Source: a virus
Lineage: Duplodnaviria > Heunggongvirae > Uroviricota > Caudoviricetes
IMG/VR virus record: IMGVR_UViG_2734482779_000001
Strand: one strand, 5' to 3'
DNA length: 5,532 nucleotides
Shown here one piece after another: positions 1,030 to 5,532 of the stretch. The notes under the pieces are model-generated. The model saw nothing but the letters and a program-made list of their open reading frames with translations, did not search any database and had not been told where the DNA came from. The position numbers and the translations under genes were made by a program. Numbering within the stretch: position 1 is the stretch's first letter; each line of letters begins with the position of its first letter.

Positions 1030-1386
1030 TTAAAAAATCAGAACGCCGTGCGGCCTCAACACCCGAAAAGCTTCTTTAAATCTCTGTCGCAAATCATCAC
1101 GCCAGGCATCTTTATTCAGCCGTCCATATTTCTTTCCCATCCAGGCGTTATCACCAACACGCTCAAGATGCGGAGGGTCTAATACAACCATCGAAAAAGA
1201 TGCGTCTGCAAATGATAATGCACGAAAATCTGCGATAATGTCAGGGCTGATAATCAAGCGTCTCCCATTGCGTAATGTGTATCCTTCTTTTCTGATATCG
1301 CTAAATATCGCCCGTTCGTCAGACTTATCGAACCAGAACATGCGGCTGCCACAGCACATATCAAGAATGGTTGCCGGTGCACTCAC
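1030..1386 (-). CDS. Putative SAM-dependent methyltransferase-like protein, short (118 aa), possibly a C-terminally truncated remnant
   Basis: ORF track 1030..1386. Contains ILDMCCGS (glycine-rich motif I-like), VLDPPH (DPP[YFHW]-type catalytic motif) and RVLRPHGVLIF (LKPGG-like strand) in gamma-class order. Start codon is GTG at 1384-1386, overlapping the TGA of the upstream gene (GTGA). Only 118 aa, so a complete Rossmann fold is doubtful. Confidence 0.55.
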   Translation of the reverse strand: MSAPATILDMCCGSRMFWFDKSDERAIFSDIRKEGYTLRNGRRLIISPDIIADFRALSFADASFSMVVLDPPHLERVGDNAWMGKKYGRLNKDAWRDDLRQRFKEAFRVLRPHGVLIF

Positions 1387-1805
1387 TGCGCCACGTCCTG
1401 AAAATTACCCTGATAGAAAGCCAGTATGCGCTGCATAACTTCGCTCTTCCGGCACTCGCGACAGATTATGTTTAGGCGACTGTCGTAGCGACGTATTTCT
1501 CCGTCAGGTGATGACCAGATAAGGTCCGGATCAACCACAGCAGGTTTCTTCACCTTTGCCCTCGAGAGTTTTTTGCGGGCGTTTTGCCAGTCCTTACGCG
1601 CCTGTTCAGAGGGGAATAACCCGTAGCCGGAGTTGTATACATCGCCACTGGCTACCAGCTCTCTGGCAAGAACGCTCATCAGATATCTAGTCGCACCTGT
1701 TTTAGCTTCCAGTTGCCGTAACGTCTCACGGCCGCTCTGGCGCACGAGTTCCACCACCTGCCATTTAATTTTTTCCCGCTCTTCTTGTGTAAAAACTTTT
1801 GCCAC
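1383..1805 (-). CDS. Hypothetical phage protein, 140 aa
   Basis: ORF track 1383..1805. GTG start at 1803-1805 preceded by a strong Shine-Dalgarno (AAGGGGGA) at about 5 nt. Stop overlaps the start of the downstream methyltransferase-like ORF. I recognise no family. Confidence 0.7.
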   Translation of the reverse strand: MAKVFTQEEREKIKWQVVELVRQSGRETLRQLEAKTGATRYLMSVLARELVASGDVYNSGYGLFPSEQARKDWQNARKKLSRAKVKKPAVVDPDLIWSSPDGEIRRYDSRLNIICRECRKSEVMQRILAFYQGNFQDVAQ

Positions 1806-1845: not shown

Positions 1846-2811
1846 TTATCCTCTGAAACCAGGCGGAATTTCTGTATCCGGTTCAGAAATATGATTAACA
1901 CAACGCTGCACAGGTGAACGTCCCAGGCGGATGACCAGTTCGTCCCATTTTTCGCGGAGCTTTGACGGGCTCATGATGTTTTTTACCCAGAATGGATCTC
2001 GCTGAACCCGACCAAACATTTCGCAAATTTGTCTGTGGCTTCTGCCATCCAGCATCCGCATTGTGCGCACGTCATTGGCCCAGGCAGTCCAGTTAGGCTC
2101 TTTTGGTCGCATGATCTCGCCATCATCACTGGCTGCCTGTTCGTAGAGACCCACGATCCGCCCCCAGATCCACTGCGCACACGCCAAATCCTCCCTGCTA
2201 CCCCACTGGCGTTTTTTCGCACTAAACACAACCGCGTCGGAGTTCCGGGTTAAAAAATCCTGTTCAGTCGTCTGCGGGTCCGGTTGCGAAGCTTCCGGAC
2301 GAAAAGTGTTTTTATTCTCTGTAGTAATCTCTGTTGTATTCTCTGTAAGATCATCAGGCCATTTTGACCCGATGACATTGGGTCGTTTTGAACCAATGGA
2401 GCGTTTCATTTTGACCTCTTCCATCGTGTCATTTTGACCTGATGGAGCGGCGCATTTTGAACCGATGGATTCGCTCAATTTGCCACCATCTAAAAGCTCG
2501 CTCCCATAGTTGATCGTGTAGAAATTGGTCATATCGCGCTTTGATTTATTGAGCTTTTCACAACGCAAAAGCCCCAGCGTTTTCAGACTTGCAAACGCGC
2601 GCTTTAACGTTGACTCTGACCAGAATGGGAACTGTTCCAGCCATTGTTCCGTTGTGTTATAAATCCAGCGAACACCATCACATTCCATGCCGGAGTTGGT
2701 ATCTCTCAACCAGTAGTGCAGTTGTTGCAAAACAATGGCTTCGTTTAAGCCAATTTTCATTGCCAGCTGCGTGTTTATAACCAGTGGGCGTTCAGCAAAA
2801 AGAAGGCTCAT
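1846..2811 (-). CDS. Phage replication initiator / replisome organiser (lambda O-like), with origin iterons inside the gene
   Basis: ORF track gives 1846..2865, but the codon at 2863-2865 is TTG. The first ATG (2809-2811) has a GGATGGA Shine-Dalgarno about 6 nt upstream, so 2811 is the preferred start (321 aa). N-terminal region looks like a winged-helix replisome-organiser domain; the middle is a low-complexity linker with repeated IGSK encoded by the iteron DNA; a conserved-looking C-terminal domain follows. Position after the cro-like and second early genes matches lambdoid layout. Confidence 0.8.
   Translation of the reverse strand: MSLLFAERPLVINTQLAMKIGLNEAIVLQQLHYWLRDTNSGMECDGVRWIYNTTEQWLEQFPFWSESTLKRAFASLKTLGLLRCEKLNKSKRDMTNFYTINYGSELLDGGKLSESIGSKCAAPSGQNDTMEEVKMKRSIGSKRPNVIGSKWPDDLTENTTEITTENKNTFRPEASQPDPQTTEQDFLTRNSDAVVFSAKKRQWGSREDLACAQWIWGRIVGLYEQAASDDGEIMRPKEPNWTAWANDVRTMRMLDGRSHRQICEMFGRVQRDPFWVKNIMSPSKLREKWDELVIRLGRSPVQRCVNHISEPDTEIPPGFRG
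2360..2468. repeat. Five direct repeats (iterons) at about 23-bp spacing, putative phage origin of replication
   Basis: Copies starting 2360, 2384, 2407, 2430, 2453: CATTTTGACCCGATG, CGTTTTGAACCAATGG, CATTTTGACCT(cttccatcg), CATTTTGACCTGATGG, CATTTTGAACCGATGG. An AT-rich stretch with short direct repeats (ATTCTCTGTA) lies at 2300-2350, immediately downstream in gene orientation, as in lambda ori inside O. Confidence 0.6.
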
Positions 2812-3313
2812 AATTCCATCCAGCTTTTTGTTGGTATTGCTGTCGATACGCAAGCTTGAAAGCAATTGCTTTTTCTATAAGTTCGTCAGTTTCACGATCC
2901 ACTACGGCAGGATCAGCAAAAAGCAGTCCGGACTCCACCACATCGCCATATTCTTTGTTTAACCCGGCGATCATGCACGTGATGCTTTTTCCGTCAGTAA
3001 TTTCACGATACAACCTGAAATCACTAATCCGGATAGCCTCCATAATCGCAGGCACTAGCGCCGTGAACTTTTCACGCTTATCCCTGGTGTCGATAGCCTT
3101 CCAGCGTTCGAATATCTTCACTCGATTAACACCAAGCGCTCGCTGATCAACCGCGCCACCTTCATCTGTGACACGCTGAACATCGATGTTCGGGCGCTCT
3201 TTCAAAGCCCAGAATGCTTCAGTGATTAATATCGTCGCCTGCTCCTGTGTCATTCCTGGTCGACATATCCAGGCATCCAGAGCCTCACGAGCCTGTTCAG
3301 GAGTGATTTTCAT
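2792..3313 (-). CDS. Phage early protein, 173 aa, in the cII position; possibly YdaT-family
   Basis: ORF track 2792..3313. ATG at 3311-3313 overlaps the dicC stop by 17 nt, and its stop overlaps the replication initiator start. The YdaT-like call rests on gene position and general resemblance from memory, not on an alignment. Confidence 0.7.
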   Translation of the reverse strand: MKITPEQAREALDAWICRPGMTQEQATILITEAFWALKERPNIDVQRVTDEGGAVDQRALGVNRVKIFERWKAIDTRDKREKFTALVPAIMEAIRISDFRLYREITDGKSITCMIAGLNKEYGDVVESGLLFADPAVVDRETDELIEKAIAFKLAYRQQYQQKAGWNYEPSFC

Positions 3314-3527
3314 TGTTCAACCGCCCCGCCCGCTTCGTCTTACGATATTCATCATAAACTTTGGGATCATACTGAAGCTCCCCGCCAGATGCCTCCTGTA
3401 GACGCATCGCGCGACCTTCGGGAACTAAATCCCCTTTCCAGCTATAAAGCGAAGCCAAACGAATACCTGCTGCTTGTGCAAGTTTTGTTTTTGAACCGAA
3501 ATACAAAAGAGCGTCAGTTTTAAGCAT
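3297..3527 (-). CDS. dicC: DicC, cro-like repressor of the dicB division-inhibition operon (76 aa)
   Basis: ORF track 3297..3527. Translation MLKTDALLYFGSKTKLAQAAGIRLASLYSWKGDLVPEGRAMRLQEASGGELQYDPKVYDEYRKTKRAGRLNNENHS matches my recollection of E. coli K-12 DicC. AAGGTG Shine-Dalgarno about 8 nt upstream; divergent from dicA. Confidence 0.9.
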   Translation of the reverse strand: MLKTDALLYFGSKTKLAQAAGIRLASLYSWKGDLVPEGRAMRLQEASGGELQYDPKVYDEYRKTKRAGRLNNENHS

Positions 3528-3610
3528 TTAAAACACCTTTATTGTTAGTCATAACTAACAAGATAGATGTTAACAAAAACATAGTCAATACGATTTAGCA
3601 TTAGCTAACT
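3528..3610. promoter_or_regulatory. Divergent dicA-dicC control region with operator-like palindromes
   Basis: Perfect 20-bp palindrome TTGTTAGTCATAACTAACAA at 3542-3561 and 14-bp dyad TTAGCATTAGCTAA at 3595-3608, sharing the core TTAG(T/C)-N4-(A/G)CTAA. Additional short dyad ATGTT-N6-AACAT at 3568-3583. The 83-bp spacer between divergent start codons must carry both promoters. Confidence 0.6.
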
Positions 3611-4018
3611 ATGGAAACAAAAAATTTAACTATCGGCGAACGCATCAGGTATCGTCGGAAAAACCTCAAACACACCCAAAGGTCTCTTGCTAAAGCCCTG
3701 AAAATCTCCCATGTGTCTGTATCACAATGGGAACGGGGTGATAGTGAACCTACAGGGAAGAACCTTTTTGCCCTCAGCAAAGTATTGCAATGCTCACCAA
3801 CATGGATTCTATTTGGCGATGAAGACAAGCAACCAACACCACCTGTTGAGAAGCCAGTTGCCTTATCCCCCAAAGAACTAGAGCTCCTTGAGCTGTTTAA
3901 TGCACTGCCAGAATCAGAACAGGATACCCAGCTCGCCGAAATGCGAGCTCGAGTAAGAAACTTCAATAAACTCTTTGAAGAATTACTAAAAGCCCGTCAG
4001 CGGACAAATAAAAGATAA
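3611..4018 (+). CDS. dicA: DicA, XRE/HTH-family repressor of dicB operon (135 aa)
   Basis: ORF track 3611..4018. Translation (METKNLTIGERIRYRRKNLKHTQRSLAKALKISHVSVSQWERGD...) matches my recollection of K-12 DicA. HTH motif near the N-terminus. Confidence 0.93.
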   Translation: METKNLTIGERIRYRRKNLKHTQRSLAKALKISHVSVSQWERGDSEPTGKNLFALSKVLQCSPTWILFGDEDKQPTPPVEKPVALSPKELELLELFNALPESEQDTQLAEMRARVRNFNKLFEELLKARQRTNKR

Positions 4019-5058: not shown

Positions 5059-5111
5059 TTTCTGGTGACGTTTGGCGGTATCAGTTTTACTCCGTGACTG
5101 CTCTGCCGCCC
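5059..5111 (+). ncRNA. dicF: DicF small regulatory RNA (53 nt), ftsZ-targeting division inhibitor, followed by T-run 5112-5116
   Basis: Sequence TTTCTGGTGACGTTTGGCGGTATCAGTTTTACTCCGTGACTGCTCTGCCGCCC followed by TTTTT matches my recollection of K-12 DicF. Located between ydfC and dicB as in the dicB operon. Confidence 0.85.
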
Positions 5112-5285: not shown

Positions 5286-5390
5286 ATGAAAACGTTATTA
5301 CCAAACGTTAATACGTCTGAAGGTTGTTTTGAAATTGGTGTCACTATCAGTAACCCAGTATTTACTGAAGATGCCGGCTTTGTTGAATAA
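5286..5390 (+). pseudogene. dicB: dicB disrupted by insertion: first 30 native codons (5286-5375) fused to 4 IS-derived codons, then stop
   Basis: ATG at 5286 with GAGGA Shine-Dalgarno. MKTLLPNVNTSEGCFEIGVTISNPVFTEDA matches the N-terminus of K-12 DicB (62 aa as I recall). From 5376 the sequence is the IS903 terminal inverted repeat, giving GFVE then TAA. Confidence 0.75.
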
Positions 5391-5532
5391 ATCGAACTTT
5401 TGCTGAGTTGAAGGATCAGATCACGTATCTTCCCGACAACGCAGACCGTTCCGTGGCAAAGCAAAAGTTCAAAATCACCAACTGGCCCACCTACAATAAA
5501 GCCCTCATCAACCGTGGCTCCATAACTTTCTG
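5376..5532 (+). mobile_element. Left end of an IS903-group insertion sequence (IS5 family), inserted in dicB; continues beyond the window
   Basis: GGCTTTGTTGAATAAATCG at 5376-5394 matches the IS903 terminal inverted repeat, and the next ~140 bp match the IS903/Tn903 end known from kanamycin cassettes, with several substitutions (a variant such as an IS903B/IS102-like copy). Right end and target duplication are outside the window. Confidence 0.85.
5453..5532 (+). CDS. IS903-family transposase, N-terminal fragment (start uncertain: GTG 5453 or TTG 5408)
   Basis: Frame open from 5387 to the window end encodes ...LPDNADRSVAKQKFKITNWPTYNKALINRGSITF, matching the IS903 transposase N-terminus as I recall it. 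No in-frame ATG in the window, so the start codon is uncertain. Confidence 0.5.
   Translation, partial: MAKQKFKITNWPTYNKALINRGSITF

Follow-up and report, generated by a model that had tools for sequence, protein, structure and literature searches.

The 5,532-nt stretch of viral DNA analyzed here (IMG/VR record IMGVR_UViG_2734482779_000001; hereafter, the window) spans the genes for immunity and replication in a Qin-type lambdoid prophage of E. coli. On the minus strand, it contains a gene for a 321-aa replication initiator (1846-2811, ATG at 2811), which is organized into an N-terminal winged-helix domain (N-domain), a disordered linker, a C-terminal domain similar to that of lambda O (C-domain), and a tail similar to the C-terminus of E. 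coli DnaT. We found that the DNA coding for the linker (residues 109-178; 2278-2487, minus strand) carries an array of 23-bp repeats (iterons) and, downstream of it in the gene, an A+T-rich block of three 12-mers. Most probably, this element is the replication origin of the Qin-type phage, located within the gene of its own initiator, and functions by the mechanism proposed below. The repeats, the selection that acts on them at the DNA level, their covariation with the initiator, the domain homologies, the lack of a loader gene, and the correlation between the initiator tail and the loader were all computed directly.

Iterons and 12-mers in the linker-coding DNA

The initial annotation of the window had pointed to five repeat copies at 23-24 bp spacing, and both their starts (2360, 2384, 2407, 2430, and 2453; spacing of 24, 23, 23, and 23 bp) and their period were recovered. 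Tandem Repeats Finder reported a period of 23 with 3.7 copies at 2386-2469. The motif given in that annotation, when searched for with up to three mismatches, matched four times, always in the repeat block, against an expected number of 0.49, and none of 200 shuffled sequences reached four matches. The right arm of the copy at 2407 is degenerate. Described as 23-bp units, the array is contiguous over 2352-2490 and has six positions, five of them clear; the units at 2352-2374, 2376-2398, and 2422-2444 each form an internal palindrome of the type CATCnGGTCAAAATGACCnGATG, and the iteron core is GGTCA-AAA-TGACC, with a 5-3-5 geometry. In gene order, iteron 1 (GATGGTGGCAAATTGAGCGAATC, 2468-2490) is in 23-bp register with the other units and degenerate in E. 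coli, while in Klebsiella and Enterobacter relatives its position is taken by a good GGTCAAAGTGACC site. Iteron 2 (CATCGGTTCAAAATGCGCCGCTC, 2445-2467) has one good arm and is read in the frame giving SIGSKC; the palindromic iteron 3 (CATCAGGTCAAAATGACACGATG, 2422-2444) is read in a different frame, giving PSGQND, and iteron 4 (GAAGAGGTCAAAATGAAACGCTC, 2399-2421), with one good arm, in the third frame, giving EEVKMK. Iterons 5 (CATTGGTTCAAAACGACCCAATG, 2376-2398) and 6 (CATCGGGTCAAAATGGCCTGATG, 2352-2374) are palindromic. At its 23-bp phase, the array has the at least three direct repeats of fixed spacing that are expected of an iteron-type theta origin.

The 12-mers, (T)ACAGAGANTAC (TATTCTCTGTAG-like), are arranged in tandem at 2312-2348 of the minus strand, with cores at 2336-2346, 2324-2334, and 2312-2322. 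The GC content of this block is 0.31, as compared with 0.48 for the whole initiator gene, which bears out the previously noted A+T-rich element with direct repeats. The likeness to the lambda origin within gene O, noted at the same time, holds as well, as both the iterons and the A+T-rich element fall within the DNA of the initiator gene that codes for the linker.

Selection acts on the repeats as DNA and not as peptide. Because a period of 23 bp cannot be divided evenly by three, the frame shifts from one unit to the next, and the units occupy all three reading frames. The repeated IGSK peptide that the copies had been thought to encode is indeed encoded by three of the five; the remaining two, being in other frames, give SGQND and EEVKMK. 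When the repeat block was recoded synonymously 20,000 times, with the protein sequence kept, the identity at a lag of 23 was 0.38 ± 0.036, and not a single recoding reached the observed value of 0.56. A comparison of 12 enterobacterial genes of one iteron class led in the same direction. The conservation at codon positions 1, 2, and 3 followed the normal coding pattern in the folded N-domain (0.81/0.91/0.55), was flat in the iterons (0.81/0.84/0.80), and was inverted in the 12-mers, where the third position is the most conserved (0.90/0.77/0.91); just downstream of the 12-mers it fell to about 0.6. Moreover, in the comparison with a sister module (L176), the origin DNA was the best conserved part of the gene (0.90-0.92 vs 0.58-0.85 for the rest, leaving aside the divergent tail end), and this best-conserved DNA encodes the linker that is predicted to be disordered.

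Relatives were taken from 10 isolated phages and from 80 loci, the latter found by an alignment-based scan of one genome per species, and were mapped by tblastn and MAFFT columns; the 12-mer was counted over 88 distinct genes. A scan with a single N-domain query had yielded 80 copies from E. coli, all of them alike. With up to one mismatch, ACAGAGANTAC matched 227 times within nucleotides 300-620 of 83 of the 88 distinct genes, and not once in the 102,512 other positions of those genes on either strand. Usually, two to four copies are present per gene, 12 bp apart, and their position 8 is fully degenerate, whereas the neighboring positions are invariant. In the TExT motifs picked by peptide, Glu is encoded by GAG in 166 of 168 cases (47% elsewhere) and Thr by ACA or ACT in 329 of 336 (46% elsewhere), while the x codon is always AnT. 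The 12-mers are present in genes from 32% to 60% GC, and because the codon bias (GAG, ACA/ACT, AnT) holds across this whole range, the conservation of the 12-mer, which extends across phyla, is that of a nucleic acid. Lambda lacks the 12-mer, and it was not described in the literature searched, a search that was thin in subscription journals and that returned no 12-mer strings in phage context. Both oriC and RK2 carry 13-mers, and by analogy with them, as well as by its position and composition, the 12-mer block may serve as a DNA-unwinding or entry element.

The initiator domains and proposed recognition of the iterons

Genes sharing the N-domain have palindromic 13-bp cores of the form abcCA-NNN-TGc'b'a', which lie at nearly fixed positions of the gene (nt ~329, 352, 375, 398, 421, and 445). 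The iteron-bearing relatives, both phages and prophages, span Proteobacteria and Firmicutes, and their hosts include Klebsiella, Citrobacter, Hafnia, Pantoea, Erwinia, Proteus, Xenorhabdus, Pseudomonas, Campylobacterales, Staphylococcus, and Bacillus. The iteron arm varies by lineage, being GGTCA, GGGCA, GGACA, or ACCCA, and its third base changes together with residue 67 of the initiator, which in the window is Ser (codon 2611-2613, minus strand; context W-S-E-S67-T) and is located at the start of the predicted recognition helix. Among the 81 genes in which iteron sites were found, Ser at this position was paired with T in 45/45 genes, Asp with G in 26/26, Lys or Arg with A in 8/8, and Asn with C in the only gene that has it; one gene with Glu had mixed sites. 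On a neighbor-joining tree of the N-domain, constructed with the residue-67 column left out, parsimony gave 11 changes of the residue, 11 changes of the base, and 11 for the combined character, so that all of them coincide on the tree. Additionally, two N-domains that are 87% identical differ as D/GGGCA vs K/GGACA. We propose that Ser67 determines which base stands third in the iteron arm (GGTCA). The same covariation suggests that the repeats are specific for the cognate initiator and provides strong, if indirect, evidence that the N-domain binds them.

Three K67-type prophages of Pantoea and Mixta (L109, L149, and L150) have mostly asymmetric sites, GGTCA...TGTCC, with one T-type and one A-type arm, as if the recognition of the two half-sites may not be equivalent.

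Iterons and 12-mers track the N-domain and not the C-domain. Shigella phage VIT_AJPSC has a C-domain as in the window, but its N-domain is of the HTH_36 type, its repeats are of 15 bp, and 12-mers are lacking.

The N-domain is encoded by 2488-2811 (minus strand), with the predicted recognition helix at residues 66-78 and the wing formed by beta strands 82-85 and 96-100. In the AlphaFold2 model it is a winged helix with a pLDDT of 80-90, in which residue 67 stands at the N-terminus of helix 66-78 and a beta-hairpin wing comes after, whereas the pLDDT of the linker over residues 111-180 is 26-39. The modeled fold is a winged helix of the RepA_N/DnaD-NTD type, and the top structural neighbor of the model is RepA_N of plasmid pSK41. 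At the sequence level, the RepA_N profile (PF06970) did not match the initiator, and the N-domain profile matched no chain in the PDB. The N-domain family has about 10,000 cluster representatives and is without a Pfam model or a solved structure. The initiator as a whole matched no Pfam family at E<=10, as only two chance-level hits were obtained; the Phage_rep_O N-terminal domain (PF04492) was not matched, and neither were the replisome-organizer N-terminal domain (PF09681) and Phg_2220_C (PF09524), which had been expected in this protein. Phg_2220_C is present in Klebsiella and Hafnia relatives that share the N-domain. The assignment of the protein to a replication family proved right: it matched PHROG 391 ("replication initiation O-like") at 1e-91, and its C-domain (residues 179-296; 1924-2277, minus strand) is homologous to that of lambda O, with 34% identity over 148 aa in BLASTP (E 1e-26), only residues 147-294 being aligned. 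The C-domain alignment has invariant columns, and tblastn against phages was also used in this comparison. RefSeq labels the initiator mostly as "hypothetical protein" and otherwise as "phage replication protein O".

Many of the protein library hits (P0240-P0327) are relatives of 400-880 aa with two N-domain stretches, in tandem or internal, an architecture that was not seen among the phage initiators studied.

The DnaT-like tail and the helicase loader

The initiator ends with VQRCVNHISEPDTEIPPGFRG (1849-1911, minus strand), a sequence that nearly reproduces the 21 C-terminal residues of E. coli DnaT and is predicted to be disordered (pLDDT <50). As many as 14 of the 21 residues are identical to those of DnaT (2ru8), including the terminal IPPGFRG. 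In phmmer, the DnaT chains 2ru8, 6aep, and 9zbt of the PDB were matched with E values of 0.013-0.044; the whole initiator matched nothing else in the PDB but YteR, by chance, and DnaT was its sole match in NCBIfam (E 0.006, tail only). The motif [IV]P[PA]GFR[GSN] is found at the end of family initiators that have a lambda-O-like C-domain as well as of those that have Phg_2220_C.

A gene for P or a DnaC-like protein is not present next to the window initiator, as had been stated in the initial annotation. The next gene (1383-1805, minus strand), at the position of ren, encodes a 140-aa protein without a P-loop; described there as unrecognized, it is in fact DUF977 (PF06163, E 5e-29; PHROG 142, "Ren-like exclusion protein"). 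The possibility that DUF977 is a hidden helicase loader was ruled out: besides lacking a P-loop, DUF977 comes after P, in the place of ren, in the sister module L176, with the gene order of initiator, Phage_lambda_P, and DUF977. In the set of 88 distinct genes, 0/26 tail-bearing initiators were followed by a lambda-P-like or P-loop gene vs 11/62 initiators without the tail, counts that are not phylogenetically independent. One prediction was tested on a sister module. P0155 is a Qin-type initiator whose immunity genes and origin are the same as in the window, and the DNA coding for its C-domain is about 70% identical. P0155 ends with ...DWNSADGWEDVL, which resembles the end of lambda O, ...DWIYGVDL, and it is followed by Phage_lambda_P and then DUF977. 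As this sister with a lambda-like tail carries P, the tail type and the presence of P change together. Conversely, the deposited genome of phage HannyBb has a tail-bearing module that is devoid of P, with an identical gene order, and the N-domains of HannyBb and the window initiator share 99% identity. Likewise, no loader gene adjoins the initiator in the Klebsiella, Hafnia, and Pantoea phages.

DnaT is the proposed factor that hands DnaB-DnaC to the PriA-PriB preprimosome, and its extreme C-terminus is given no role (PMC13377028). We hypothesize, from the likeness of the two tails, that the tail of the phage initiator acts by mimicry of this host factor.

Probable origin function in the prophage and known systems

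According to the mechanism that we propose, transcription from the pR-like dicC promoter (3560-3588, minus strand) would yield the initiator and run through the origin. The N-terminal winged-helix domain would bind the five or six semi-palindromic iterons (GGTCA-AAA-TGACC) phased by 23 bp, and the third arm base would be read by residue 67, where the recognition helix begins. The nucleoprotein complex would then destabilize the adjoining A+T-rich block of three ACAGAGANTAC 12-mers, the putative unwinding or entry element. Finally, the lambda-O-like C-domain and the disordered DnaT-like tail would recruit the host helicase machinery without a phage P or a DnaC-type loader, a likely route being the engagement by the tail of whichever host partner normally binds the tail of DnaT. 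That the initiator binds the iterons and the DNA melts, how the helicase is loaded, and that the origin is active in the window prophage are what we infer.

A wider reading, which we offer tentatively, is that there is a grammar of origins common to the whole family and to different bacterial phyla. It would consist of a variable palindromic iteron read by the residue-67 code (S/T, D/G, K or R/A) and an invariant ACAGAGANTAC 12-mer bound, perhaps as single-stranded DNA, by the conserved part of the same N-domain. The enterobacterial members without a gene for P or a DnaC-type loader would load DnaB by mimicry of the DnaT tail, linking the melted origin to the restart primosome or to the DnaB-DnaC hand-off.

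The gene order around the origin is that of a lambdoid immunity region. The transcription unit upstream, reading through the origin, occupies 2792-3588 of the minus strand and consists of the pR-like promoter, the cro-like dicC (3297-3527), and a cII-like gene of the YdaT family (2792-3313). The repressor gene dicA (3611-4018, plus strand) is intact. Downstream of DUF977 there is a fragment of a SAM-dependent methyltransferase gene (1030-1386, minus strand), whose relatives are annotated in RefSeq as frameshifted or with an internal stop, and positions 1-1030 contain more decayed open reading frames (ORFs) of the nin region, including a DUF7167 pseudogene. The window also includes ydfA, ydfB, and ydfC, as well as the DicF sRNA (5060-5111, plus strand; full-length Rfam match, 76.7 bits) between ydfC and dicB; DicF was the sole match of the Rfam scan, and the origin region had none. 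At 5287-5532, dicB is cut after about 30 codons by the end of IS903B (GGCTTTGTTGAATAAATCG..., from ~5376), which runs to the end of the window; this insertion is rare, as nearly all close E. coli matches stop at 5375. The ATG of the initiator (2811) overlaps the 3' end of the YdaT-family gene by 20 nt (2792-2811), which suggests translational coupling, and the identical overlap is annotated in HannyBb and PhiR42_1. PADLOC gave no match for the initiator, DUF977, and YdaT-like proteins. In strain C11, the matching region lies in a prophage adjoining rspB and ynfA.

Several observations weigh against an active origin of the proposed kind. The promoter-proximal iteron position is degenerate and two other units have only one good arm each, the A+T-rich block extends over no more than ~37-50 bp and, at 31% GC, is of moderate A+T content, and a DnaA box was not found at up to one mismatch. 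The covariation rests on a simple neighbor-joining tree and a purpose-made site caller. Moreover, seven genes with the N-domain, those of L159, L165-L167, and L172 (Bacillaceae), L156 (Proteus penneri), and L141 (a Desulfuromonas metagenome-assembled genome), have no abcCA-N3-TG palindromes at the usual positions; their iterons may be of other geometry or located elsewhere. The similarity to DnaT is limited to 21 residues (E ~0.01): the profile of the C-domain found no chain in the PDB, DnaT included, which confines the likeness to the tail, and the partner of the DnaT C-terminal tail is not stated in the literature searched. Last, the prophage is decaying, as shown by IS903B in dicB and by the methyltransferase pseudogene in relatives, and it is presumably repressed by DicA, so that the origin may never fire here.

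The last of these points leads to the alternative that the element is an origin by descent, inert in the window prophage, and intact only because the element is young or hitch-hikes. The insertion in dicB fits it, as do the frameshifted methyltransferase genes, other pseudogenes, and IS elements of close relatives, the intact DicA repressor gene, and the lack of a loader gene. However, the initiator ORF and the origin are intact, the near identity of the N-domain to that of HannyBb comes with a shared gene order, modules of the same loader-free type are present in several isolated phages, and the origin segment occurs in 1,956/5,426 complete E. coli genomes (36%), mostly at >=95% identity. We regard an inert origin as possible but rather doubtful. 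The earlier suggestion that the prophage keeps a cis-acting origin stands as far as sequence integrity and conservation are concerned.

It is considerably less probable that the 23-bp repeats are binding sites of the initiator or a regulator for another use, such as autoregulation, titration and incompatibility, or the exclusion of related phages. Such uses are known: cloned iterons of the lambda origin inhibit related phages (PMC3349717, PMC4488673), and plasmid iterons also act in copy control (PMC5397158). In the window, however, the sites are in the middle of the gene, far from the promoter at 3560-3588, and wherever they occur the conserved 12-mer A+T-rich block accompanies them; in lambda, SPP1, and pSK41, the matching architecture has been shown experimentally to be an origin (PMC7466680, PMC6316719, PMC5703833). 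Secondary roles of the repeats beside initiation are compatible with the origin function. The least credible alternative, that the repeats have no role in cis as DNA and arise simply because the linker peptide is repetitive (IGSK, TExT), can point to the three iterons encoding IGSK and to the 221/227 12-mer copies that share one frame, encoding T-E-x-T, but it is already contradicted by the iterons read in the two other frames, by the failure of all 20,000 synonymous recodings to match the periodicity, by the conservation of wobble positions with a free second position in the AnT codon, by six 12-mer copies that are out of frame, by the predicted disorder of the linker, by the dispensability of the equivalent linker peptide in pSK41 Rep (PMC5703833), and by the presence of the repeats in homologues from two phyla, whereas an echo of the peptide, as the initial annotation had put it, would be absent from homologues.

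Taken together, these comparisons leave the replication origin within the initiator gene as the preferred explanation, and origins of this kind are known from lambda, SPP1, and pSK41, although the variant present in the window is not curated. As in ori-lambda within gene O, iterons and then an A+T-rich tract, in the direction of transcription, lie mid-gene between the DNA-binding N-terminal and the C-terminal domains (PMC7466680; lambda sequence). The iterons have the same 5-3-5 geometry with a central A-tract (CCTCA-AAA-CGAGG in lambda vs GGTCA-AAA-TGACC in the window), the C-domains are homologous, as described above, and in both cases the order of genes is cro, cII-like, and O, with a gene in the Ren position afterwards. 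In contrast to lambda, the window N-domain is outside the Pfam Phage_rep_O family, the iterons are five or six contiguous units of 23 bp instead of four of 19 bp, the purine-rich tract is replaced by conserved ACAGAGANTAC 12-mers, the P helicase loader has no counterpart next to the initiator, and the tail is DnaT-like instead of ...DWIYGVDL.

The iterons of RepA_N replicons take the form of inverted repeats that converge toward a poly-A tract (PMC5703833, PMC7145576). The NTD of pSK41 Rep (319 aa) binds Rep boxes located centrally in rep, the origin-encoded linker is dispensable, and the CTD is host-specific (PMC5703833). The window initiator resembles pSK41 and pTZ2162 Rep in the location of the origin in the central, linker-coding part of the gene, in the semi-palindromic iterons converging on an A-tract, and in the winged-helix fold for which pSK41 RepA_N is the closest structural neighbor. 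However, the window protein is outside PF06970 and its N-domain has no sequence match in the PDB, the element belongs to phages and prophages whereas RepA_N replicons are plasmids, and the C-domain is lambda-O-like whereas that of pSK41 is structurally DnaD-like and binds DnaG primase. Moreover, an element such as the 12-mer is not described for RepA_N replicons in the literature searched. The oriL of SPP1 similarly has direct repeats and an A+T-rich unwinding element inside the gene of the origin-binding protein (gene 38, G38P; PMC6316719), but SPP1 has its own loader (gp39) and helicase (gp40), and the Phage_rep_org_N domain was not detected in the window protein. With E. coli DnaT, there is no similarity beyond the tail.

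Neither a description of the Qin origin nor the term "initiator-solo" was found in the literature searched; the term is said to come from Weigel and Seitz 2006. In the uncurated variant, an N-domain that resembles RepA_N, a C-domain of the lambda O kind, and a DnaT-like tail are combined with an origin 12-mer common to different phyla and with no loader gene.

The proposed recognition code, in which a residue and a base would specify the origin, bears on incompatibility, phage exclusion, and the engineering of orthogonal replicons. Both this code and the 12-mer shared from Staphylococcus and Bacillus phages to E. coli prophages are now open to direct test. The results also provide a rule for the annotation of origins in thousands of phages and prophages: NNNCA-N3-TGNNN sites phased by 23 bp at about nt 330-450 of the gene, followed by ACAGAGANTAC repeats. 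The DnaT-like tail, in turn, offers a handle on the recruitment of DnaB in lambdoid replicons that are free of a loader, and if the tentative wider reading is true, swapping this tail of about 20 residues would switch a lambdoid replicon between P-dependent and P-independent initiation.

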